Assembly: GCA_964653285.1 (NCBI GenBank)
Contig: CAZZEX010000021.1
Location: forward strand, 1 to 56,735
DNA: 56,735 bases
From: an uncultured Anaerolineales bacterium
GTDB lineage: Bacteria; Chloroflexota; Anaerolineae; B4-G1
Reading direction: 5' to 3'
Position 1 is the stretch's first letter, and every line of letters starts with the position of its first letter. A program made the position numbers and the translations under genes. This document shows, in pieces, positions 8,368 to 30,697 of the stretch. The notes under the pieces were generated by a model, which had not been told where the DNA came from, ran no database searches, and saw nothing but the letters and a program-made list of their open reading frames with translations.

Positions 8368-9441
8368 GTGATACGGCGGCATAGGCTTGATGAGGCAATG
8401 ATGACTGAGCGGACCGAGCGTTGGGGTGCCGAACCTCTGGATGAAGAAGACGCTGGTACGTGGGCCTTCCGGGGCTATCGGTTAGACCCGACCCACTTCA
8501 CCACGGCGATGGTCCATTTCTACCGGGCCGAAGTGACCCGGGCCAACACCTGGCGCACCCGGTTGGACGCAACCACCAACTGGGCGGTGGTCACCGTGGG
8601 TGCGGGGCTCACCTTTGTTTTCAGCGCGCCGCAGAATCCCCACTTCGTGCTCCTGCTGGTGCTTCTGCTGGTGCTCACTTTCCTGCACATTGAGGCTCGC
8701 CGCTACCGGTACTATGCCCTTTGGTCTTATCGGGTGCATTTGATGGAAACCGACTTCTTCGCCGCGATGCTGGCGCCGCCTTTTCGCCCTTCCTCAGACT
8801 GGGCCGACCATCTGGTGGAGAGCCTGCTTCAACTCGCTTTTCCCATCGCCCGGTGGGAGGCGGTGGGTCGGCGATTCCGCCGCAACTACGTCTGGCTGAT
8901 CACTTTGCTGCTCATCAGTTGGTGGGCCAAGCTGACTATCCACCCGGAGTTGGCGCCGGATAGGGCCACGGTGGTCGAGCGGGCCGCCGTCGGCTCCATT
9001 CCCGGAGCGTGGGTGATGGCTGCCGTCGGGGTGGTATGTGGAGTGGTGGCAGCGCTGGCAGTGGTTGCGTCTCTTCCCCATACCTGGCGGGAGGCCCTGC
9101 CGAGACCACTACGGTGGATGGGGAGACGAGTGCAGCGAGCGGCAGGTCCGTTGTTGCCGGAGCCCCGCTCCCGGGAACAGTTGGCGATCATCATTACTGC
9201 ACGTGGTCAGCAGGTCTCTTCGCGGCTCTTGGCAGAATTGAGACGCGGGGTGACAGCGTTGGAGGGAACCGGGATGTACACTGGCGAGGCGCGGAACGTG
9301 CTGCTGTGCGCCGTGACCGACGTGCAAATGCCCCACCTGGAAGAGATCGTGTATCGGGCTGACCCGGAGGCCTTCGTCGTCGTCAGCCCGGTGGAGGAGG
9401 TGCGGGGGAAGGGGTTCCGTCCCTTCGAGCCCCCCAGTTGA
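8368..9441 (+). CDS. Membrane protein fusing a DUF2270-like N-terminal domain with a DUF2179-like (YitT C-terminal) domain.
   Basis: N-terminal ...MVHFYRAEVTRANTWRTRLDATTNWAVVTV...IEARRYRYY matches my recollection of DUF2270. C-terminal ...LEGTGMYTGEARNVLLCAVTDVQMPHLEEIVYRADPEAFVVVSPVEEVRGKGF matches DUF2179. The table start is GTG 8368; ATG ATG at 8398/8401 is a likelier start. Confidence 0.65.
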   Translation: MIRRHRLDEAMMTERTERWGAEPLDEEDAGTWAFRGYRLDPTHFTTAMVHFYRAEVTRANTWRTRLDATTNWAVVTVGAGLTFVFSAPQNPHFVLLLVLLLVLTFLHIEARRYRYYALWSYRVHLMETDFFAAMLAPPFRPSSDWADHLVESLLQLAFPIARWEAVGRRFRRNYVWLITLLLISWWAKLTIHPELAPDRATVVERAAVGSIPGAWVMAAVGVVCGVVAALAVVASLPHTWREALPRPLRWMGRRVQRAAGPLLPEPRSREQLAIIITARGQQVSSRLLAELRRGVTALEGTGMYTGEARNVLLCAVTDVQMPHLEEIVYRADPEAFVVVSPVEEVRGKGFRPFEPPS

Positions 9442-9611
9442 CCTGTGGAGAAGGACCGCTGCCCGGCACGAGCGGTGGTCTGATTTCCGGCTTACTTGTT
9501 CTTGCGCAGCAGCAAGGTCTGAACTGTGCAGGCTTGCGTCTCTATTCAACCCGCTGTACAATTAGGGGAGATTTCAACACCCTCTGTGGACGGGGACAGG
9601 GAGAAATTGAG

Positions 9612-10367
9612 ATGAGCAGACGCATCGGTGTGCTGAACTACAAAGGTGGCACAGGCAAGACGACCACGGTGGTGAACCTGGCCGCTGGCCTGGCCTTGCG
9701 TGGAGTGCGCGTTCTTTGTATTGACCTGGACGCCCAAGGCAGCCTGGCGACGTGCCTGGGGGCGCGTTATACCTATTCCCTCGCCCACGTGTTGCTGGGA
9801 CAGGCAGAACCGGAGGACTGCATCGTCCAGGCGCGGGACAATCTCGATCTCATTGCCAGCGATGGCAGCCTGTTTCAGGCTGAGGGAGAGATGTGGCGCA
9901 TGAACGATAGCCGGGTGGCCCAGCAAATACTGACCAGCAAAATGCGTGGCCTGGAGGGCCAATATGATTACGTCATTCTCGATTTCTCGCCTTCGGTAAG
10001 CATCTTAAGCGAGAGCGGGCTGCGATATATCAGAGAACTCATCGTGCCGGTCTCAATGGGTTATCTGGCTATGATAGGAACCCGGCAGGTGATTGAGACG
10101 CTGAGGAATATCGGCCGGGTACCCGGGCATCGCGTTCGCCTTTACCTGATCGTCCCCACGCTTTACTCCGGCCGGTTGCGAAAGGACCGTGAGGTTCTGG
10201 GAATCCTGCAACGTCACTTTACCGACAGGGTGACCGAGCCGGTCCGGGTGAACGTAAAGCTTACCGAGGCGCCTAGTCACCACATGACCATCTACGAGTA
10301 TTCACCCCGCAGTGCTGGCGCGGCTGACTATAAACGCCTGGTAGAGAGGGTTCTTCGTGATGGTTAA
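9612..10367 (+). CDS. ParA/MinD-family P-loop ATPase (orphan ParA-like).
   Basis: Deviant Walker A VLNYKGGTGKTT, CIDLDAQGS, D-Y-V-I-L-D Walker B region. The table ORF from 9438 has a non-protein-like N-terminal extension. ATG 9612 is preceded by GGGAGAAATTGAG. Confidence 0.85.
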   Translation: MSRRIGVLNYKGGTGKTTTVVNLAAGLALRGVRVLCIDLDAQGSLATCLGARYTYSLAHVLLGQAEPEDCIVQARDNLDLIASDGSLFQAEGEMWRMNDSRVAQQILTSKMRGLEGQYDYVILDFSPSVSILSESGLRYIRELIVPVSMGYLAMIGTRQVIETLRNIGRVPGHRVRLYLIVPTLYSGRLRKDREVLGILQRHFTDRVTEPVRVNVKLTEAPSHHMTIYEYSPRSAGAADYKRLVERVLRDG

Positions 10368-12087
10368 AAGAAAACAGAAGTCCGACAAGGTACAAGAATC
10401 AGATTTAGGCCGCGATCCATTCGAAGGCATGGATATGGAATGGATGGCCTGGGAGGAAGGTGCACCGTCCATTAAGGTACTGGGCCAGGATCCATTCGAA
10501 GACATGGATGTGGACTGGATGGACCAGGAGAGGGATGAACTATCCCCCGGGTTGGCTCAGGAAGAAGTCAAGGTCGCACTTGGCGAAACCGAAGCCCGGC
10601 CTGTCCCGAGGGCAGCCGAAGAGTTTGCTCTGGATCAAGTCGTTGTAGAAGAGTTTGCCCTTGAGCGGGCTGTTGCAGAGATTGAGCCGCTGGTTCAACC
10701 TAAACCTCTGGAGCCAGTTCGAACGGGCCGCCCCACCGGCGTCGCTCCTGCAAGAACATCCATGCCCGCAGCCACGTTCCACTTTCCCGCCGACTTCAAG
10801 TGGGGCGTCGCCACCGCCGCCCACCAGGTCGAGGGCGAAAACATCCACAACGACTGGTGGGCCTGGGAGCAGACGGATGGTCACATCAGGAAGGGGCACA
10901 TGTCTGGGCTGGCCTGCGATTGGTGGGAGAACGCCGAAGCCGACTTCGACCGCGCCGCTGAAATGGGTCTGAACGCGCTCCGTCTCTCGGTCGAGTGGTC
11001 GCGCGTCGAGCCCCGCCCTGGCGTGTTTGACGATTCCGCCCTGGAGCGGTACAGCCAGATGTTGCAGGGGTTACGCGAGCGCAACATTGAGCCGATGGTC
11101 ACCTTGCACCACTTCACCAATCCCCGTTGGCTGGCCGAGCGAGGCGGCTGGGAGGCCCCGGAGACCATCGCGCTCTTCGCTCACTTCGTGCGCCGGGTCG
11201 TCGAGGCGCTGGGCCGACACTGCGATCTGTGGTGTACCATCAACGAACCCAATGTCTACGGCTACATGGGCTATTTGGAGGGTGTCTTTCCCCCCGGTCA
11301 ATCCGATCTAAAAACAGCGCTGCGTGTCGTCCGCCACCTGCTGGCGGGCCACGCTGCTGCCTACCGGGAGATCCACACACTCCAACCCCACGCCCGCGTC
11401 GGCCTCGCCCACAACATGCGCGTCTTCGATCCGGCCAACCCCCGCTCGCTGCTGGACCGGCGCGCCGCACAGATGACGGACAAGGTCTATAACCAGGCCA
11501 TCCTTACCGCGTTGACCCGGGGCCGCTGGACGCTGCCTCTGGGCTTTGGCCTGGCCCGGAAACTGCGCCGTACCCTCGATTGGATCGGCCTCAACTACTA
11601 CACTCGCGACCTGGTCGCCTCCGACCGCACGCAGCGTCGGTCGCTCCTCAACCGCCGACTGCACGCCGGCGATGCCGAGTTGCTCGATGGTGGCTACGGC
11701 GAGTTCTACCCCCGTGGGATGTTCCGCTGTCTCCAGCGGCTGGCGCGTCTGGGTCTGCCCATCTATGTCACGGAGAACGGCATCCCCGACGATAACGACG
11801 ATCAGCGGCCGCGTTACCTCCTGGCCCATCTGCACCAGGTGTGGCACGCGATTCAGTTCTGCTACCCGGTGATGGGTTACTATCACTGGACGCTGGTGGA
11901 CAACTTCGAGTGGGCCGAAGGGTGGACACTGCGCTTTGGCCTCATCTCGCTCGATCCCGAAACCCAGGCCCGCACGCCGCGCCGCAGCGCTGACCTCTAT
12001 GCCGAGGTCGTCCGGGCCAACGCCATCACGTCCCAGATCGTTGACGCCTACGCGCCAGAACTGCGGGCCGAACTGCTGCCGGGATGA
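10357..12087 (+). CDS. Glycoside hydrolase family 1 (beta-glucosidase-like) with about 135 aa of N-terminal extension: a basic tip (MMVKRKQKSDK) followed by acidic repeats.
   Basis: GH1 signatures FPADFKWGVATAAHQVEG, LRLSVEWSRVEP, TLHHFTNPRW, INEPNVY, YVTENG, HWTLVDNFEWAEG. The N-terminal repeats DPFEGMDMEWM / DPFEDMDVDWM and EEFALD/EEFALE. The start overlaps the ParA-like stop by 11 bp. An alternative internal start is ATG 10762. Confidence 0.85.
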   Translation: MMVKRKQKSDKVQESDLGRDPFEGMDMEWMAWEEGAPSIKVLGQDPFEDMDVDWMDQERDELSPGLAQEEVKVALGETEARPVPRAAEEFALDQVVVEEFALERAVAEIEPLVQPKPLEPVRTGRPTGVAPARTSMPAATFHFPADFKWGVATAAHQVEGENIHNDWWAWEQTDGHIRKGHMSGLACDWWENAEADFDRAAEMGLNALRLSVEWSRVEPRPGVFDDSALERYSQMLQGLRERNIEPMVTLHHFTNPRWLAERGGWEAPETIALFAHFVRRVVEALGRHCDLWCTINEPNVYGYMGYLEGVFPPGQSDLKTALRVVRHLLAGHAAAYREIHTLQPHARVGLAHNMRVFDPANPRSLLDRRAAQMTDKVYNQAILTALTRGRWTLPLGFGLARKLRRTLDWIGLNYYTRDLVASDRTQRRSLLNRRLHAGDAELLDGGYGEFYPRGMFRCLQRLARLGLPIYVTENGIPDDNDDQRPRYLLAHLHQVWHAIQFCYPVMGYYHWTLVDNFEWAEGWTLRFGLISLDPETQARTPRRSADLYAEVVRANAITSQIVDAYAPELRAELLPG

Positions 12088-12119
12088 CGCGAGGACACGT
12101 CGGAAGCGAGGATGCCAGG

Positions 12120-13115
12120 ATGAACGGACGAAGCATTGCCGTCGTGGTCGCATTGAGCCTGAATCTTCTGCTGTTCGGATGCAGCGGTGAGGCGACCCCA
12201 GAAGTCCCACCGGCCTCGGCTCTCGACCAGATGCCCCTCGTGCTCGCTCGCCCCTTCTTCACGACTGGGTATGAACTGGTCGGCTATTATGAACTGGACG
12301 TCGGCAGCGATGGTGTTATGGAGGCGTTGGCAGTCCTGACCTTGAGACTTCCGTTGAAGGAATCCTTTCTGGGCGATTCTTACGTGTTGCTATTTGGTCA
12401 GCATGGGGGAGCGTGGAGCCTGACTGATGATCAGCAATTGGATGGCGTCAACGCCAGTGCGGAGTTGCGCGACCTGACCGGCGACGACTTTCCCGAACTG
12501 CTCGTCTTCACCGAGGAGGCAGATACCCAGTTGGGGGACTTTGTGACGCCGCTGCGCTACACTGACCACCTGATCGTGTTCACGTACGTGCCAGATCTGT
12601 ACCTGGTGGAGTTGGGGACGTTTAGCAGCAGCCTGTCGGGCGTGATGCGCCCACACTCGACGGCAGGGGAGTGGGGAGGTAGGCCAGTCATCCAGACCGC
12701 ACAGGACCTCCCGCCGACCGGGGACCCGCTGTGGTGGCCTTTCCGCGTCGAGACTTTCGCCTGGGACGGGCAGGACTTCGCCAGCGTGCAGGTGCGGGAG
12801 CAGCGACGAATCTCGCCCATCGTTTCCTGGCTGGTGCGCCGAAACGCACCCTGGGCGATGGCGTCTCTGGTCCTGGGCGGGGCGTTGAGTTTGGTCCTGA
12901 CCACGGTCGTACGTCACTCGCGCCTGCGGGAGCGATGGGCGATCCTGGGACTGGCCCTGCTGCTCATAGCGGGCGGGGTTGGCCTGGGGCTGGCAGAGGA
13001 GTGGTTGTGTGTGCCGGCATTGATCCTGGTCGGGCTGGCAGGCTTAGTGGTTGGACGGCAAGTGGCGACGCGGCTTAAATCGAGTCGGGATGCTGAGGTG
13101 GAGAGTGAAGGATAA
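12120..13115 (+). CDS. Hypothetical lipoprotein with a C-terminal membrane anchor.
   Basis: Signal peptide plus lipobox (AVVVALSLNLLLFGCSG), two C-terminal TM helices. The table start 12084 is upstream in-frame. Confidence 0.55.
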   Translation: MNGRSIAVVVALSLNLLLFGCSGEATPEVPPASALDQMPLVLARPFFTTGYELVGYYELDVGSDGVMEALAVLTLRLPLKESFLGDSYVLLFGQHGGAWSLTDDQQLDGVNASAELRDLTGDDFPELLVFTEEADTQLGDFVTPLRYTDHLIVFTYVPDLYLVELGTFSSSLSGVMRPHSTAGEWGGRPVIQTAQDLPPTGDPLWWPFRVETFAWDGQDFASVQVREQRRISPIVSWLVRRNAPWAMASLVLGGALSLVLTTVVRHSRLRERWAILGLALLLIAGGVGLGLAEEWLCVPALILVGLAGLVVGRQVATRLKSSRDAEVESEG

Positions 13116-14058
13116 GGCACCGACTTTCTGCCCCCGCTGTGGAACGGTGATGGAGACGGCCGAAGTAGGTGGGCGCGTGCGCGAGATCTGTCCCGCCTGC
13201 GGTTTCATTCTGTACCGCAACCCGGTGCCTGGCGCTGGTGTGCTGGTGGAGATGGAGGAAGGCATTGTGCTGGTTCGGCGAGGGCAGATGCCGTTCGTGG
13301 GTTGGTGGGCGCTCCCCTCAGGCTACATTGAGGCAGACGAGAGTGTCGAGCAGGCGGCGGTGCGGGAGTGTAAAGAGGAGACCGGGCTCGACGTCGAACT
13401 CCTGGAACTGTTCGGTGTCTATTCTTTCCCGGAGGGACCGGTGCAGAGCGGCATCGTCATATTCTACCGCGCCCGGCCTGTGGGCGGTGAACTGCGGGCC
13501 GGCGACGATGCCCAGGACGTGGGTGTCTTCGCCCCAGACGATCTGCCAGAGAAACTGGCCTTCCGCACTCACCGTGAGGTACTGGCGCGCTGGGTGCGCC
13601 GACGTTCGTCCGAGTCCCGCGCCGACGTGCCCGGCATCGTCATCCGGGAGGCCCGCACCGAGGACGCCGCCCGGGTCATGGAACTACTGCCGCTGATCCC
13701 TGCGAACGCAGGGTTGAGCCCCGTCGAGGTGCAGGCCGCGGCCCAGCGCTTCCACGAGAGCCTGGCGATGGACGTGCTGGTCGCGGAGGTGGATGGACAG
13801 GTGGTGGGCTTTCTCACTCTTTCGTTTATCCCCGTCCTCTCTGGACTGCGGGCCTTGATTGACGACCTGGCCGTGGATCCGGCGTATCGGCGGCAGGGGA
13901 TCGGCGCGGCGCTGGTGGAGGCGGCAATACAGCGGGCCGACCGGCGGGGAGCGACGCATCTGCTGGTAGACACCTCACAGGGCGACGTGGCGGCCCGCGA
14001 CTTCTACCAGGCCTGCGGGTTCGAGGCGGGGGGGGTCGCCCCTCTGCGCATCCGGTAG
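13089..14058 (+). CDS. Zinc-ribbon / NUDIX-hydrolase / GNAT-acetyltransferase fusion protein.
   Basis: CPRCG...CPACG ribbon, Nudix box GWWALPSGYIEADESVEQAAVRECKEETG, GNAT motif LAVDPAYRRQGIGAALVEAA. Start uncertain (13051 or 13089). Confidence 0.8.
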
Positions 14059-20743: not shown

Positions 20744-23700
20744 TTATCCATCTCTCTTCGCCACCGGCAGGTAGTACTGCCACGGCTCCAGGAAGAGCCG
20801 GTACGCCACCGGCAGGTAGGCTCGCCACGGCTTCAGGAGGAGCCACGTCGCCCGCTCCCACGTCCCCCCCGTTCCATCCTCCAGAAAGGCCACGCTGTAC
20901 AGGGGCGGGTGAATGGGATTGGTAGGCAGGGTGAGCCAGTAGGTCAGAGTCACCCGGCCCCCGGCGCTCAGGGAGCCGTTCCAGCGCACCGTTTCAGTCA
21001 GTACCTCCGTCGTGCCTCCACCCATCCAGACCAGGGAGTCGGGGACAAGTGTGGCGTCCGCCGGGAGGAGGTTGGTGATCACCGCCGCAGGGGCATCTCC
21101 AGGGCCGGCGTTGGCGAGGGCCAGCGTGCAGGTGACTGTGGTGCCGGGCCGGGCAGGGGATGGGCTACATCGGAAAGCCGACGGAGAGAGATCGGGCGTG
21201 CCTACCCGCACCACAGCGGCGTGGTGGAAGCGGATGTCCTGATCCTCCAACCCGAAGCAGGCCATGTTGGCGATGAGGGTGCCGGTGGGGAGGCCGGCCG
21301 CCACGGTGACTCGATAAGTGGAGGTAATCGCTGCCCCCGGCCCGAGTGGCCCCTCCCAGGAGAATCGGTGCGTGAGCGGGTCGTAGGCAGCGGGTCCAGT
21401 CAGGCCGTCGGGGACCAGGGTAAGGCTGGAGGGCAGAGTGTTGGAGAGCGTAGCGCTGACCGTCTCCGGGCCGCTGTTGTGCAGGGCGGTGGTGTAGGTA
21501 AGCACGTCACTGCCAGAGATTGCACCCCGGTCGGCGGAGAAAGTCGAGCCGCCCAGCCAACTCAGCCACCCGACGACGCGCTTCATCACCTCGGCTCGGC
21601 CAGCCTCCGGCAGCGTCTCATACGGGAAGGAGAAAAACATTGTCCTGTAGTCTCCCTTCTGCCGCGCCAGCGAGATGGGACGGCGCTCCTGGTCGCGGAA
21701 GGGGACGGCGGTGCCGGGAGTGGGCACGACCGCGTCCGACCAGTTGTGAAAGGGGTAATCCAGCGAGTAGGGGCCCAGCCGGTCTCCGACGGGGTTCTCT
21801 GGCACCCCACACGCCAGCGTCGGCGTGACGTCCTCGGTGTGGGTCATCACCCCCAGGTAGTCCCAACTGAATAGGTCGTGCTGGTGGTAGTAAAGGAAGT
21901 CCTGAGAAGAGAGAAACAACCGTCCCCCGCCATCAAGGTATTCCGCCAGCGCCGCCTCCTCGTCGGCGGTCACCGGCGCGTACCAGTCGTAGCCGGTGAA
22001 CCAGACGATGATGGGGTAGTGCCGCAGCACGTCCGACGGGGGTCTGCCTTCCGGTCCTGCGCCGTTGGCTTCCTCGGTGTGGCAATAGTCGTAGTGGAAA
22101 CCACCGCTCGCCAACGCTGCTTCGTATTTGGTCTCTTGGTCGTACCAGCGGTCGTCGTCCACCAACAGGATGGGAGCAGGGACCTTGGACGTGAGGATGG
22201 CAGTCTGGGCCAGGGTGGGAGAAAGGGACGAACGGGCGGTGAGGGTGATCACGTCCCGTGCGTCCCACTCGGCGGTGGGGGGAGCGGTGACAGTCACCAC
22301 GATGGTGGCCGAGGTGCAGGGGGCCAGGGGGAGGGACTGGGCGCTGAGTTGGGTGGCCCAAGATACGCCGTCGAGCGAGAGGCTGACGGTATCGGTAGTA
22401 CCTCCCTGCCCCACGTGTCGCACCCGCAGTGCATGGGTGACGGCGGTGCCGGGGAGGCCGATGTGGGTCTGGGTGGCGGGGGTCAGTTCCAGGCCGGCGA
22501 CGGGGGGATCGGCCACCAGCCACGCCAGCGCCCGGCCCATCACCTCCCGGCGGGCGGCCCGGTCGTTGATGGCCTCCAAGCCGAACGAGAGGTAGATGAC
22601 CCGGTAGTCCAGGCAAGTCCCTACCCGCACTCCCCCGCAGCCATCCTCTTGATAGGTCAGTATCGGTGCGGCGGCGTCGGGGTCAGCGACGGCGATTTCG
22701 TCGGGGAAATCCTGGTTGTCGGCCCCGCCGGGGCCTGTGATGGTGATAGTCAGGCCAGCGAAGACGTCGTCTCCCAGCCCCTCCAGCACCCGCGCCTGCG
22801 CGTCGTCGCTGACGTAACGAGCCTTGAGGTAATCCTGGTAGTAGGTGCACCGGTGGATCAACGATCCGCCACCGTCCCAGAAGCCTACGTCCTGCCCGCT
22901 CAGGAGCAGCCGCCCCCCGGCGGAGAGGTAGCCGGTGATGGTATTCTGGGCGCCGATATAGCCAGGAGCGTCCTGTGGCGCGCTCCAGGCCACGGCATCA
23001 TAGGGGGACAGGTCGGCTACAGCCGGGATGTCGCCGGGCAGGTGCTTGATGGCCCATTCGTCGTAGGCGTAAGCCAGGTCGTCCAGCGCCTGGCGAAAGT
23101 AGTTGGCCTGGCTGCCGTAGTACCAGGGACCGCTGTCTACCAGGAGGATGGACGCGGCGGGAGGCAGAGCCAGGTCTGCCTCAATGCTCTGCCCGGCGAT
23201 GATGTGCACGGTGGTGGTAATGACCCGGTATCCCAGGCTGCGGGCGCGAAGGGTGTAGGTGCCAGCAGGGAGGGTGAAGACGTAGGCGCTGGCGGTGACT
23301 TCAAGGGGAGTATCCAGCACGGCGATGGCGGCCGTGACTGGCATGCCGGTGGCGGCGTCGGTGACTTGGCCACACAGGGTACCGGTGGGCAGCGGCTCGA
23401 GAGAGAAGCCCTGCACGCTCGTCGTGCCGGTCGTCACTACTACCCCCCAGGCAGTGGTGGGCTCGTAGCCGAAGGCAGAGGCGGTCAGGTCGTAGGTGGT
23501 GGGGGCCAGCGCCAACAGGTAGTTCCCGTCAGCATCGGTGGTGGTCGTCCCCCCGCCCTCGCCCCCGTGAGGGGTGGCGGCGACCGTTGCCCCGGCGATG
23601 GGTGCACCATCTCCGTCCCGTACCACTGTCCCGGCGATGAGGCCAGGCTGGGCCAGCGCGGCGACGGCGGCAAAACCGTCCACCCGGCCCCAGCCGGCGT

Positions 23701-25250
23701 CGTTGTTGGGGATGGGGTCGCCCAGGGGGGCGGCGGTGCTGGTGATGAGGAGGGCAGCACGGGTGATACTCAGCGTGGGGCTGACCGAGCGCAGGAGAGC
23801 GGCGATGCCGGAGACGTGGGGGGCGGCCATCGAGGTGCCGCTCATCGGGCCGTAAGCGCCCCCCGGCAGGCTGGAGCGTACATTCACCCCAGGCGCGGCC
23901 ACGTGGGGACGGACCTCCCCCCAGGGGGAAGGACCCCGGCTGGAGAAGCCAGCCACCTCGTCGTCGGAGTCGGTGGCGCCGGCGGCGAAGGCTTCGGGCA
24001 GGGAAGCCGGTGAGTCGACCGTGCCCCCGTTGGGGCCATTGTTGCCATTGGCAAAGACGGCGAAGATGCCGGCAGCCTGCAGAGCCCGCAGATCGGGTTG
24101 AAAGGTGGTCAGAGAGCCATTTTCGTTGCTCCAGGAGGAGTTGACCACATCGGGGGCTCGGGACGGGTCGCCGCCAGGAGCCAGGAGCCACTGGAACCCC
24201 TCGTGGATCCAGGAGTCGTAGCCGTAGCCCTGATTATTCAGGACTTTGACCGCGATCCATCGTGCCCCGGGTGCAACGCCGATGCCATCCTGCCCGACGA
24301 TGGTACCCAGTGTGTGGCTACCATGGCCGTGGCCGTCCACCGGGTAGAGCGCACCGCCACCGGTGGCGTCGTGCCAACTGTAGGTGTGGTTGGCCGGCCC
24401 GTGAGGGTCGTAGCCCCGGTAGTTGGCCTGCAGCGCCGGGTGGAGCCAGTCCACTCCCGTGTCCATCCCCGCCACGACGGCCCCGGTGCCGGAGACGTGG
24501 AGGGAGGCCCAGACCTGGTCGGCGCGGATGCGGGCAACGTTCCACTCGATTGCAGAACAAGAATCCAGGTTTTCTCCTAAAAACCTGGTTTCTGGAAGGG
24601 TCGTGAGTTGCGAATTTGGGGTTCGGGGTTCGGGGTTTGGGATTTCGGTGGCGAGCCACTGGCGGTAATGATCCAGGCGAACGGCGGCGACGGTGGGATG
24701 AGCGGCGAGGGCCCGGATGAGGGACGGGCGCGCGCGGACGGCGATGCCGTTGAAGATCCAGAAAGGGGTGTAGGAATCCACCAGCCCGGCGGCCCGTGCC
24801 CCCTCCAGATAGGCCCGCAGCGAGGCTTGAGAACGGGCGGCGTTGGCCTGCAGTGCCGAGACGACGCGGGGGCGGGCCTCGGTCGTATTCAGCGCTCCGC
24901 CGACCGCCGCCTCGAGATCGGCCTGCTCGCGCAGGTGAACAATGACGCGAAGATACTCATCGGACTCTGCCTCAAGCAGAGCCCGCAATAGTTCCGGCTC
25001 AATGGGAGGCCCGTCCTGCTCAATTCCTCTCATTGGTCCAGGGGTGGACAGTTGCCACGGCGGTGAGAGCACAGCAGGCGTCGCTTCCCATCCGGGCGTC
25101 TCCCGGTAGAGGGGGAAACCTGGCTCTTCTCCCTGTTGAGGACTCCCCCCTTCGATTCTGTCGATCTGGGGGGAGTCAAGTGCGGGAATGCCCGCACTTG
25201 TCAACAGGAAGAATATGAGTATCATACTTGCGATGCGGTAGAGTGTGCTC
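20744..25250 (-). CDS. Large secreted subtilisin-like serine protease (S8) with an I9-like propeptide, carboxypeptidase-regulatory-like and CARDB/DUF11-like beta-sandwich domains (about 1500 aa).
   Basis: Signal peptide MSTLYRIASMILIFFLLTSAG. Catalytic triad contexts VVAGMDTGVD, HGHGSHTLGT, GTSMAAPHVSG. Multiple Ig-like repeats. Degenerate 45-bp tandem repeat at the 3' end. Confidence 0.9.
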
Positions 25251-25332
25251 ATTTTTGCCCTTCGCTCAATCCACCAACTTCCAATCATTATACCATCGGA
25301 GGTCAGGGAACGGAAATTCTGGAGGTGTCACC

Positions 25333-27579: not shown

Positions 27580-29274
27580 ATGGAAATCTTGCCGGAAATC
27601 TTGAACGACATATCAATCCTTGTGACGGTTGTGGTCGGGGGCACGGTGGCCACCGTCGCTTTTCTTGGGCTGGCCATGTTCTCGCGGCGCGACGGATTGA
27701 TGGTATTAACGATACGCCTCATCGTAGGGGCGTTCTGCGCCCTCGTCTACCTCGGGCTGGCAATGAGATTCTCGCTCAGCGGCCCGATGGTCGTCTTCTT
27801 GAGCGCCCTGATTGCGGAACCGCTACAAATTCCGCTCTCGTACGTTTGGATGCCCACCAATAAGTGGTTTCGGCGGTGGGTACCCTGCGTCGTGTGGCTT
27901 TATCTCTGGGTCACGGCTCTCATTGGCTGGCGATCCGGATGGCTGGGGCTGCTGATCGTCACGCTGCCGGCGCTCCTCATCGCCGGGCTAGGGCTCTTCT
28001 TTGTGGCCGGCTATCTTTTGCCCTTCCCGAAGCAAGACCTATACCGGGGCAAGCATCCTGCGCCCGGCGCAAGGGGCATACCGACTTTCGGTCAGGAGAT
28101 TCGGGATTTTCTTGATCTCCTTCGCTATCCCCAAAATCGGGAAGCCCGGAAGCAATGTATCGAACAGCGCCGGAAGGCCCTCCAGTGTCTCCTGACGTAT
28201 ACGCTGGGGACGAACCGCCCTTACTACGTCGTCATAGACGAAAAGATCGCAGAACGCGCTGAGGGTACCACTACCTGGTTGACAGAGGAGGAGAAACTGA
28301 TTCAGCGGGTGGATGGCGCTATCTTTGGAGAGTTCCTGGCGGGTCCAGGTATTGTCCTCACTGGCTGCGACCAGGCCGTCGCCATCTCCACTGGCCAGAA
28401 GTTCAAAGGGGCCAAAGGCCCCGGCATCGTCTTCACCGGCTACACTGACCTTCCCGCGCACGTCGTTGACCTGCGAGTGCAGTTATGTGCCTTCCCGGTG
28501 GAGGCCTGGACAAAGGATGGCATCGCCATTAGAGTCACTACGTTCATCCCGTTCCAGATCGGCACAGGCAAAGAAGAACCGGCCCTGGGGCAGGGGTTCC
28601 CCTATCGTTCCAGCGACGTCTTCAAGGCGGTACACGCGCAACTGATGGAGCACGTGGACCCGTCCCAGGTGCCGGAGAGTCTGGAGGAGCAGAAGTGGTA
28701 CGATCTGCCCCGTCTGGCCGGCGAGCGCATCGTGCGCGAGATTATCTCCCGCTACGAGTTCGACGAGCTCTACACGCCATTTGAGTTGCACACAGACCTC
28801 GGCCAGGATCCCCGTTCCAGGATCGGCAAAGAAATGCGAGAGGAACTGAACCAGACACTGCCAGGTTGGGGTATCCAATGCATAGGCTGTGGCATCGGTA
28901 ACATAGTGCCGGTGGACGAGCGCGTGATCGAACAGCGTATCGAGGCCTGGAGGACCGACTGGGCGCGCAAGATCATGCTTCAACAGGCTGCGGGCCAGGC
29001 CAGGCGGCTACGCCTGGTGGAGCAGGCGCGGGCGCAGGCACAGATTGACATCGTCTTGGCTGTCGGCAGACGCCTGGAGCGACTGCGAGCCGCCGGGGGC
29101 CCTGTTCCATTGGACGCCATTGTGCTCTATTTCGTCGAGGTGCTGGAAGAGTTGGCCGGAAGGTCGGCGTTGCGCAAGCTCCTCCCAGGAGATATGGACA
29201 CCATTATACAGCGTGCACGCGGGGCGATCGGAAGGGGGCCAGCCGGCGCGGAGGGGGAACAGACCAATGCGTAG
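27580..29274 (+). CDS. SPFH/band-7 (flotillin-like) domain membrane protein with multi-TM N-terminus, paralog 1.
   Basis: ...GPGIVFTGYTDLPAHVVDLRVQLCAFPVEAWTKDGIAIRVTTFIPFQI... SPFH core. C-terminal coiled-coil (RRLRLVEQARAQAQIDIVLAV). Confidence 0.7.
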   Translation: MEILPEILNDISILVTVVVGGTVATVAFLGLAMFSRRDGLMVLTIRLIVGAFCALVYLGLAMRFSLSGPMVVFLSALIAEPLQIPLSYVWMPTNKWFRRWVPCVVWLYLWVTALIGWRSGWLGLLIVTLPALLIAGLGLFFVAGYLLPFPKQDLYRGKHPAPGARGIPTFGQEIRDFLDLLRYPQNREARKQCIEQRRKALQCLLTYTLGTNRPYYVVIDEKIAERAEGTTTWLTEEEKLIQRVDGAIFGEFLAGPGIVLTGCDQAVAISTGQKFKGAKGPGIVFTGYTDLPAHVVDLRVQLCAFPVEAWTKDGIAIRVTTFIPFQIGTGKEEPALGQGFPYRSSDVFKAVHAQLMEHVDPSQVPESLEEQKWYDLPRLAGERIVREIISRYEFDELYTPFELHTDLGQDPRSRIGKEMREELNQTLPGWGIQCIGCGIGNIVPVDERVIEQRIEAWRTDWARKIMLQQAAGQARRLRLVEQARAQAQIDIVLAVGRRLERLRAAGGPVPLDAIVLYFVEVLEELAGRSALRKLLPGDMDTIIQRARGAIGRGPAGAEGEQTNA

Positions 29275-30697
29275 GAAAGTTGAGTCCCAGTACTTCAAGC
29301 GTCTGTCTGTACTTCTGCTGCTGGTTGCACTGGTGTTCCTCCTCGGTGGCCAAGCGGAATTTCACCGTCGCCAGATAGACCTGACGGCGTTGGACGTCAG
29401 AGCCATAGCCATTTTGATGGTCAGCCTGCTCCCCGCTGCTGTACTCAACTCGCTCCCGGCATTTGTGGCGCTGGTTGCCATCCCGTGGCTGGCCTCGCGT
29501 TTCATCTACACTCTCTACGACCCGAAGAACCTAAAGGAAGCCCACGAGTTCTTGCACCGTAACGTGTTTGGCATGGCGACGCTTAGGCCAATTCTGATCG
29601 TGAAAGAAGGGCACATCGCCGTTGGCGCGGGCAGCCTGTGCGACCGTATCGGTGGCCGCGGTTTCATGGTGGTCCACAACGACAGCGCGGTGGTGTTGGA
29701 AAAGGGGGGGCGTCTGACCCGTGTCGTGGGGGGGCCTTCTTTGGGTTTTCTTGAACGCTTCGAGCGGGTCTGGGAGGTCGTCGACCTGCGCCGTCAGCGC
29801 TGGCTCCTCACTGTTAACGGGATGACCAAGGAGGGCATCCCCATCGCCTGCCAGGCCGACATCACCTTCAAGATTGACGACCGGTTTGTTGATCAATGGG
29901 AAGATATGCAGCAAACGCTACCAGTCGAGACAGAGATCCAGCCATTCACGGATGCAGCGATCGCCGCGGAACTGGAGAAGGCCGGAATAGCGAAACCCCT
30001 CCCCTACACGGAGGAGGCGGTGTTCAAGGCAGCCACGAGCATCTGGGTCCGCGTCCGCCAACCGGACCATAAAGAGCAACTGAGGAAGTGGACGGGGCGG
30101 GTGGTGATTGGCGAGGTGGAAGGCACCTTGCGCTCCATCCTGGCCCGCTACCGGCTCGACTGGCTCATGCGGCCGTCCCAGCCGGGGCAAAAGCATCCCC
30201 GGGAGGAGATACGGGGGCTGTTGGAGCAAGCACTGCGCGATGCGTTTCCGGTGGGCAACCCCATCGGCGCCCGGATTCTCCACGTGGGCCTGGGGCGGAT
30301 TGACGTGAAGGACGAGAGGATCTCCACCCAATGGGTCAAAGCCTGGCAGGCCGGGTGGGAGCAGAGAGCGGTGGAGGGCCGGGCGGAGGGAGAGGCGGAG
30401 ATGGCGCGCCTGCAGGCGGCTCAGGTGCGGGCGCAGGCGGAGATGGCCCTGGCCCTCACAGAGGCGATCCGGCCGCTCGTTACCAGCGTAGAGGAATTCC
30501 CCTCCTACCTGCTCGCTATGCAGTTTATCGAGACCCTGCGGTGGATGGCCTACGACCCGTGGAAGCGGGTCTTCCTACCACCCGAGGCACTGCGGACGCT
30601 CGACGAACTGGAGAAGATGATGGATAAGGCGGGTGTATCTCCGGACGAGACCCGCTCGGAGATCAGACGGCTGCTGGCAGAAGCGAGAGAGACATGA
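29267..30697 (+). CDS. SPFH/band-7 domain membrane protein, paralog 2.
   Basis: ...GRGFMVVHNDSAVVLEKGGRLTRVVGGPSLGFLERFERVWEVVDLRRQRWLLTVNGMTKEGIPIACQADITFKI... is collinear with paralog 1. EA-rich coiled coil. ATG 29267 overlaps the upstream stop by 8 bp. The table ORF starts earlier at 29045. Confidence 0.7.
   Translation: MRRKVESQYFKRLSVLLLLVALVFLLGGQAEFHRRQIDLTALDVRAIAILMVSLLPAAVLNSLPAFVALVAIPWLASRFIYTLYDPKNLKEAHEFLHRNVFGMATLRPILIVKEGHIAVGAGSLCDRIGGRGFMVVHNDSAVVLEKGGRLTRVVGGPSLGFLERFERVWEVVDLRRQRWLLTVNGMTKEGIPIACQADITFKIDDRFVDQWEDMQQTLPVETEIQPFTDAAIAAELEKAGIAKPLPYTEEAVFKAATSIWVRVRQPDHKEQLRKWTGRVVIGEVEGTLRSILARYRLDWLMRPSQPGQKHPREEIRGLLEQALRDAFPVGNPIGARILHVGLGRIDVKDERISTQWVKAWQAGWEQRAVEGRAEGEAEMARLQAAQVRAQAEMALALTEAIRPLVTSVEEFPSYLLAMQFIETLRWMAYDPWKRVFLPPEALRTLDELEKMMDKAGVSPDETRSEIRRLLAEARET

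Follow-up and report, generated by a model that had tools for sequence, protein, structure and literature searches.

A ParA-like ATPase co-inherited with an N-terminally tagged GH1 beta-glycosidase: a candidate positioning module in Anaerolineae

Introduction

Can a ParA-type ATPase take a single metabolic enzyme as its cargo? The known cargos of ParA/MinD ATPases are chromosomes, plasmids, carboxysomes, chemoreceptor arrays, flagella, the divisome, and secretion and conjugation machines. The question arises from a locus in an uncultured Anaerolineales bacterium (assembly GCA_964653285.1, contig CAZZEX010000021.1; all 56,735 nt analyzed are called the window here), in which a gene for a ParA/Soj-like ATPase runs into a gene for a GH1 beta-glycosidase that carries a long N-terminal extension. 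We find that the genes for the ATPase and the tagged GH1 enzyme, whose stop and start codons overlap, are strictly inherited together, and that two unrelated cargo domains, GH1 and CheW, share the tag beside sister ParAs. In the literature that we searched, no paper connected a ParA-like ATPase with a glucosidase.

Results

The ATPase and tagged GH1 genes are inherited as a pair

Searching species-representative genomes with a profile built from the tag, the N-terminal part of the extension, we recovered 16 loci, all from metagenome-assembled genomes (MAGs) of Anaerolineae/Anaerolineales. Together with loci fetched by protein identity, these gave 21 tag-GH1 loci with readable upstream DNA. The initial annotation of the window had proposed checking whether the adjacency of ParA and extended GH1 recurs in relatives, and it does: a 251-residue ParA lies directly upstream in 21/21 readable loci, while the flanks vary. 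The ParA sequences are 67–81% identical in the 17 loci compared and 67–88% identical across at least 21 loci. Read from the ATPase side, the gene following ParA in related GH1-linked loci is always the tag-GH1 gene; the best 120 ParA homologues (67–100% identity) are all about 251 residues long, and two from the low-identity end that we examined likewise belong to GH1-linked loci. Upstream of the pair lies a DUF2270-DUF2179 or a PIN-TRAM gene, and downstream either a 343-residue membrane- or lipoprotein-like open reading frame (ORF) or a Nudix-GNAT gene, so that the ParA-GH1 pair is the sole constant part of the neighborhood, with no conserved third gene.

One locus bears out the further expectation that a GH1 without ParA would lack the extension. 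At L019, a GH1 with 77% identity over the catalytic domain starts with MPEATFYFP right after an NrtR-type Nudix gene, and both ParA and tag are absent. At L024, the same NrtR gene is followed by ParA. ParA plus tag therefore behaves as one unit of insertion or deletion.

The two genes are joined by a compact and conserved junction. The GH1 reading frame is open from 10357 to 12087, and because the homologues start with MVKRK or MAKRK and one of them (P0002) is an identical 575-residue protein, we place the start at ATG 10360 rather than at GTG 10357. The tagged GH1 coding sequence thus spans 10360..12087 (+ strand, 575 residues) and overlaps the ParA stop by 8 nt (ATGGTTAA), which corrects the 11-bp overlap first reported. 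An ATGnnTAA junction is found in 18/19 GH1-linked loci, and almost all of 22 loci, the chemotaxis-type locus described below among them, keep a Shine-Dalgarno-like GAGAGGG within the ParA 3′ end (10344..10350, +), 9 nt ahead of the ATG of the partner gene. The G+C content is ∼52–57% across the 3′ half of the ParA gene and the extension and ∼65% in the GH1 domain.

The GH1 extension is translated and carries a conserved motif

The catalytic domain was initially described as preceded by about 135 extra residues; we count 134, and the evidence that they are translated comes from several sides. The extension is present in frame in 115/120 of the best GH1 homologue clusters (61–100% identity, Chloroflexota/Anaerolineae MAGs). 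In a relative that is 60% identical over the extension, the frame is kept through indels of 12, 48, and 30 nt, all multiples of 3. The pairwise ratio of nonsynonymous to synonymous substitution rates (dN/dS) against 13 loci is 0.15–0.34 in the tag (residues 1–58), 0.2–0.9 in the linker that follows, and 0.08–0.22 in the GH1 domain, indicating purifying selection on the tag. Since the frame survives indels, most clusters carry the extension, and the tag dN/dS is low, we conclude that the extension is translated. The internal ATG at 10762, which the initial annotation had allowed for as the true GH1 start, is ruled out by the starts of the homologues, the frame kept through indels, the tag dN/dS, and the conserved Shine-Dalgarno sequence and ATG. 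Two homologues considered as untagged GH1 proteins (P0103 and P0062) were rejected as such, their short annotated starts being mis-called and the tag lying in frame in their DNA; one other (P0115, at L020) is ambiguous for the tag, with a run of N upstream. The extension is matched by no model in Pfam or NCBIfam. A search with the extension alone returned one partial protein, whereas the full-length query recovered the family, and the single match is due to word-index limits rather than to rarity.

The conserved core of the extension is a motif, (K)-V-L-G-H-D-P-F-E-[GD]-[LM]-D-[ML]-E-W-[LMI], present in one to three copies. Over the instances in homologues its G, D, and P are invariant, the L is kept in 94–100%, and the W in 76–89%; among 115 homologues, 96 have two copies, 18 have one, and 1 has three. 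In the window, copy 1 (LGRDPFEGMDMEWM) occupies residues 16–29 (10405..10446, +), a position at which G, D, and P are invariant, L is 94%, and W is 89% over 114 instances, and copy 2 (LGQDPFEDMDVDWM) occupies residues 41–54 (10480..10521, +) and is found in 97/115 homologues. The two copies are matched at the DNA level by a 63-nt direct repeat (10408–10470 and 10483–10545, 76% identity) that encodes DPFEGMDMEWM and DPFEDMDVDWM. Of the two pairs of acidic tandem repeats noted earlier, both are present in the window, but conservation separates them: the DPFEGMDMEWM/DPFEDMDVDWM pair is conserved family-wide, whereas the EEFAL tandem, a 30-nt tandem repeat at 10618–10677 inside the variable linker, is not.

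The motif is preceded by a basic tip, MVKRKQKSDK (10360..10389, +), which resembles the N-terminal peptide MAKNKVLGRG of Helicobacter pylori ParB (HpParB, PMC11229316). At least three Lys or Arg residues are found among the first 12 residues in 86/115 homologues, and at most one in 10/115; where the tip reads MADDHKQSEG (P0104, at L029), ParA is still directly upstream with the same 8-nt overlap. The proposal that a Lys/Arg tip is the partner motif thus holds in part, in that the tip is common but not universal and the invariant element is the LGxDPF...D..W motif.

Between tag and enzyme lies a variable, acidic, Pro/Ala-rich linker (residues 55–134, 10522..10761, +), delimited by homologue comparison, model confidence, and dN/dS. 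In homologues it measures 23–185 residues (median 79), with P, E, and A making up 16%, 15%, and 14%. In an AlphaFold2 (AF2) model built from an 82-sequence alignment, residues 1–130 have a predicted local distance difference test score (pLDDT) below 50 and the extension does not dock onto the GH1 domain; the extension is accordingly predicted to be disordered.

The tag also occurs on a CheW-domain protein beside a sister ParA

When the tag profile was run against 1.84 billion representative proteins, 16 matches were returned, mostly GH1 fragments; four (P0249, P0250, P0252, and P0256) were unrelated repeat proteins and were rejected by eye. A further match, P0253 (254 residues, E = 5.5e-5), begins with MMDSKKTISKKVMGKDPFEDMDMGWMDGEEGE, continues with an acidic linker, and ends in a Pfam CheW domain (E = 1.4e-27). 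Its contig (L023, 3279–4785, from an organism with a G+C content of 45%) carries, in order, a PatA-like response regulator, CheY, ParA, the tag-CheW protein, CheR, and a CheA-like Hpt protein. The ParA of this locus is 66% identical to the window ParA over the full length, compared with ∼36% for Thermus Soj, and its stop overlaps the tag-CheW start in the same way, and in the same ribosome-binding-site context, as in the GH1-linked loci. Judged by its sequence, the L023 pair has a ParC/ParP-type layout. The ATPase lies within a chemotaxis operon at L023 only, and not at the window locus.

A possible third arrangement comes from L030 (P0246, positions 1–1050 of a 1-kb contig), where the 3′ end of a ParA gene and a short gap precede a tag ORF whose N-terminus is very acidic and lacks the basic tip and whose tail is not GH1; this may represent a third type of partner, or else the contig may be misassembled.

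The ATPase retains the residues of a Soj-like ParA

The ParA/Soj-like ATPase is encoded by a 251-codon ORF at 9612..10367 (+) and was assigned by Pfam (AAA_31, E = 2.9e-38; CbiA, E = 5.4e-17), by sequence matches in the PDB, and by its AF2 model. Reading of the sequence places a deviant Walker A motif, KGGTGKTT, at residues 11–18 (9642..9665, +), with signature lysine K11 and catalytic lysine K16. K11, K16, D38, D40, and D124 are invariant over 65 ParA homologues, so that the KGGxxK[ST] lysines and the Walker A′ and Walker B aspartates are all present, and the protein is, by these residues, an ATPase-competent, Soj-like ParA. By analogy with its relatives it would dimerize in an ATP-dependent manner and hydrolyze ATP faster when stimulated by its partner. 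In several ParA homologues of GH1-linked loci, KGGTAKTT replaces KGGTGKTT (Gly15 to Ala), with both lysines still invariant.

The nearest sequences in the PDB are Thermus thermophilus Soj (TtSoj; 1WCV, E = 2.6e-35) and H. pylori Soj (HpSoj), and the AF2 model (predicted template-modelling score 0.81) matches HpSoj and TtSoj with template-modelling (TM) scores of 0.78–0.83, the HpSoj score being 0.83. The match to McdA is weak (E ∼4e-11, partial alignment). HpSoj contacts DNA through K199, K227, K230, and K247 (PMC11229316). In an alignment, K199, K230, and K247 correspond to R193, K216, and R233 of the window ParA, where a basic residue is found in 62/65, 65/65, and 60/65 ParA homologues, respectively; the fourth, K227, lies in a two-residue Helicobacter-specific insertion of HpSoj that adjoins the invariant R212 of ParA. 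These correspondences suggest that a Soj-type basic DNA-binding patch is kept.

Upstream of the ParA gene we identified a promoter-like element, TTGCGT-N17-TACAAT (9534..9562, +), whose presumed function is suggested by its recurrence across loci, its core (TGTACAAT) being found 52–124 nt upstream of ParA in 8 loci. A generic consensus promoter scan returned no hit; it missed the element because the −35 box matches at 3 of 6 positions. The Shine-Dalgarno sequence of ParA is GGAG (9600..9603, +), in a GGAGAAATCGAGATG-type context kept in most loci, including L023.

The ATPase was initially described as an orphan with neither parB nor parS nearby. As to parB this stands: among 39 of the larger window ORFs, scanned with Pfam, there is no ParB-family and no chemotaxis protein (parS was not searched for), and no ParB directly adjoins ParA in related loci. 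The window ORFs scanned also held no bacterial microcompartment (BMC) genes. With PADLOC, ParA gave weak P-loop matches alone (E of 1e-5 or worse) and GH1 gave none, so that this search links neither gene to a defence system.

The GH1 domain looks like an intact cytoplasmic enzyme

The GH1 catalytic domain, a TIM barrel, spans 10762..12084 (+; Pfam PF00232, E = 8.8e-89, with the Pfam domain beginning at about residue 141), and the barrel is modeled by AF2 with pLDDT mostly above 90. Its closest structure in the PDB is 1VFF, a Pyrococcus horikoshii beta-glycosidase (E = 4e-84). Reading of the sequence identifies E296 in the NEP motif (TINEPN, 11245..11247, +) and E472 in the TENG motif (VTENG, 11773..11775, +), which from established knowledge of GH1 enzymes we take to be the acid/base and the nucleophile, respectively; a NEP-type motif is found in 117/120 homologues and TENG in 115/120. 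The score against the NCBIfam BGL model is 296.7, below the cut-off of 478.5. The protein has no transmembrane segment or signal peptide, and from its sequence it looks like a catalytically intact cytoplasmic beta-glycosidase.

Neighboring genes

Nudix and GNAT functions almost always adjoin the GH1 gene. In most loci they form a downstream Nudix-GNAT fusion (13051–14058 in the window); at L018 they are separate genes, and at L019 and L024 an NrtR-type Nudix-WHD regulator lies upstream. These neighbors point to a small-molecule glycoside pathway. Directly after GH1 in the window lies an ORF of 343 residues (12084–13115), its start codon and the GH1 stop overlapping as ATGA. This ORF, which shows a lipoprotein-like signal (LLLFGCSG) and hydrophobic helices toward the C-terminus, gives no match in Pfam, NCBIfam, or PADLOC and is found in part of the related loci (L003, L005, L011, and L013). 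Directly upstream of ParA is a DUF2270-DUF2179 fusion (8368–9441), which holds the same place in about half of the related loci, PIN-TRAM taking it in the others.

Farther away in the window, two ORFs of 564 and 550 residues at 27580–30697 overlap by ∼230 nt, each with a weak SPFH/Band-7 match, and are preceded by a 377-residue ORF without a family match. A 1514-residue S8 subtilase with CarboxypepD_reg and DUF11 domains is encoded at 20744–25288 (−), overlapped on the opposite strand by long, spurious-looking ORFs.

Discussion

We interpret the pair as a two-gene positioning module made of a ParA and a ParP-like partner with GH1 as its cargo domain, a reading that we think probable, if by no means secure. 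It agrees with the initial annotation in making a metabolic enzyme the cargo of a ParA system, and it draws its support from the conserved adjacency, the joint absence of ParA and tag at L019, and the sister locus with the tag on a CheW protein; all the computational checks made of that annotation spoke for it. In such a module, ATP-bound ParA dimers would bind and coat the nucleoid through the putative Soj-type basic patch. The N-terminal tag, with its one to three motif copies and usually a basic tip, would bind ParA near the dimer interface and stimulate ATP hydrolysis, and the GH1 enzyme, made multivalent by duplication of the tag and possibly by oligomerization, would be tethered to the nucleoid and spread along it by a diffusion ratchet like that of PpfA or McdAB. 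The enzyme would thereby be evenly distributed in, or inherited by, Anaerolineae cells. Binding of ParA to the tag, stimulation of the ATPase, and localization are all steps that we infer. The module most likely arose by a domain swap between a chemoreceptor-array positioning system and a GH1 gene, in either direction.

Among known systems, PpfA/TlpT of Rhodobacter sphaeroides, which segregates clusters of cytoplasmic chemoreceptors, is, by analogy, the closest match to the proposed mechanism. There too an orphan ParA uses non-specific chromosomal DNA as its matrix and is engaged by the N-terminus of its partner (PMC5706961, PMC9178275), but that partner is a chemoreceptor in a large array and not a single enzyme, and we liken the two systems by description rather than by sequence. 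In architecture, the pair is comparable to ParC/ParP of Vibrio and Pseudomonas, where an ATPase gene likewise precedes a partner consisting of an N-terminal region, a Pro-rich linker, and a cargo domain, a likeness of layout. In Vibrio ParP, a long Pro-rich linker joins the N-terminal domain that interacts with ParC to a CheW-like domain at the C-terminus, and the N-terminal domain remains functional after transfer to CheW1 (PMC5706961). Here, however, the C-terminal domain is GH1 instead of CheW and no che genes were found among the window ORFs scanned; moreover, Vibrio ParC has a polar anchor in HubP, whereas the ParA described here appears to carry a Soj-type DNA-binding patch.

The ATPase itself finds its best structural and sequence matches in chromosomal Soj/Spo0J (ParABS) systems. 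In the structure of HpSoj with DNA and the ParB peptide, MAKNKVLGRG binds near the dimer interface via K3, V6, L7, and R9 (PMC11229316), and the start of the tag, MAKRK..KVLG(H/R)D, resembles this peptide, a resemblance short of demonstrated homology. Unlike in ParABS, no ParB is found among the ORFs scanned and the motif runs on as DPFExhDhEWh rather than GL.ALL; F52 of HpSoj, which stacks on ParB Arg9, aligns with Ala/Val in the ParAs of this family. McdA/McdB is comparable to the proposed module in that a nucleoid ParA-family ATPase distributes a protein-based metabolic cargo and a largely disordered partner has an N-terminal interaction region. The pair differs from McdA/McdB in that type-1 McdA lacks the signature lysine (SGGQGKT, PMC9178275), which is invariant here as K11, that the cargo of McdA/McdB is a megadalton organelle, and that the partner here is a 575-residue GH1 protein and not a small McdB. 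More generally, a disordered, charged N-terminus is the specificity element of ParA/MinD partners and has been proposed as a “luggage tag” (PMC10241942). In the MAPS “luggage tag” concept of Pulianmackal et al. 2023, the N-terminal peptide of a partner is a portable address label by which cargo of any kind could be assigned to a chosen ParA/MinD ATPase (PMC10241942). Theirs is a proposal for design, whereas here the tag appears to have moved naturally between a CheW adaptor and an enzyme.

Several observations weigh against a positioning module with GH1 as cargo. The basic tip expected for ATPase stimulation is absent in ∼9% of homologues, and the position of ParB Arg9 is mostly His (66–77% of motif instances). 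R188 of ParA, the equivalent of Bacillus subtilis Soj R189, is Arg in just 56/65 homologues. The CheW-type partner comes from one species-level example: L023 and L026–L028 are ∼100% identical, representing one organism assembled from four samples, and therefore count as a single independent case. A diffusion ratchet works best on large multivalent cargos, and a single enzyme is an odd one, assemblies of GH1 being hypothetical. The benefit of positioning a beta-glucosidase is also unexplained.

Other readings accept that the pair works together and assign the enzyme a different part. GH1 could be an adaptor whose catalytic domain binds a larger structure, such as a membrane patch, a glycolipid, or a polysaccharide deposit, which ParA positions or links to the nucleoid. 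The nearest solved homologue, the 1VFF enzyme of P. horikoshii, has been described as membrane-associated and active on alkyl glycosides, which favors such a role. Known ParA partners, moreover, are usually adaptors built into large cargos (PMC10241942, PMC5706961). Against an adaptor role, no third gene is conserved with the pair and its flanks vary, and GH1 still looks like an ordinary soluble enzyme because it lacks a transmembrane segment and a signal peptide and keeps its catalytic motifs; we regard this role as unlikely, while giving it some weight. A shade less likely again, in our view, is a regulatory pairing with no part in positioning or partitioning, in which ParA sequesters the enzyme on the nucleoid or switches it on and off, or the tagged enzyme titrates ParA. 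That the cargo is a single enzyme would suit regulation, as would the near-stoichiometric co-expression suggested by the stop-start overlap and the presence of regulatory neighbors, with the NrtR-type Nudix-WHD gene at L019 and L024 and Nudix-GNAT in most loci. Yet the sister system belongs to a chemotaxis operon, a type known for spatial organization, and ParA seems to keep every residue of the ATPase cycle along with the Soj DNA-binding patch, as would a dynamic positioning ATPase.

Two further readings would deprive the extension of any function. If the pair were the relic of a decayed ParA/ParP-like system fused to GH1 by accident, the high variability of the linker and the spread of one to three tag copies would be readily understood, but at least 21 loci of different Anaerolineae species-level genomes retain the pair, with a ParA that is always 251 residues long, and the low dN/dS of the tag, its invariant G, D, and P, and the conserved overlap and Shine-Dalgarno sequence make such decay very improbable. 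The other reading, that GH1 is translated from ATG 10762 as a 441-residue product while an ordinary chromosome-partition Soj lies upstream by chance, we consider practically negligible. Automatic annotations of P0103 and P0062 do start GH1 at an internal Met, and among solved structures ParA is most similar to chromosomal Soj; those starts, however, are mis-called, the frame across indels, the purifying selection that dN/dS indicates for the tag, and the conserved Shine-Dalgarno sequence and ATG point to translation of the extension, and neither the window ORFs scanned nor the immediate neighbors of ParA in related loci include a ParB.

We return, then, to the positioning module with a GH1 cargo domain. 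If it is real, a GH1 enzyme that itself bears the partner tag would be a new class of cargo, a single enzyme, and ParA-based positioning would reach ordinary cytoplasmic enzymes, with tags moving between cargos in evolution. The sister chemotaxis locus would show an evolutionary route to new cargos, namely a domain swap behind a conserved ParA-tag junction. The strongest form of this idea, which we put forward tentatively and hold to be rather doubtful, would have ParA arrange one soluble metabolic enzyme in space without the involvement of an organelle, DNA, or a membrane machine. A modular short linear motif, shuffled in nature, would act as an address label of general use for this ParA subfamily; through tag duplication and the disordered acidic linker, the enzyme may then gather into mesoscale assemblies at intervals along the nucleoid of filamentous Anaerolineae. 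The family offers a motif of 14–16 residues with an invariant G, D, and P, a small 251-residue ATPase, and an easily assayed enzyme, and it would show in nature the principle of a portable N-terminal tag, which is wanted for synthetic positioning systems.

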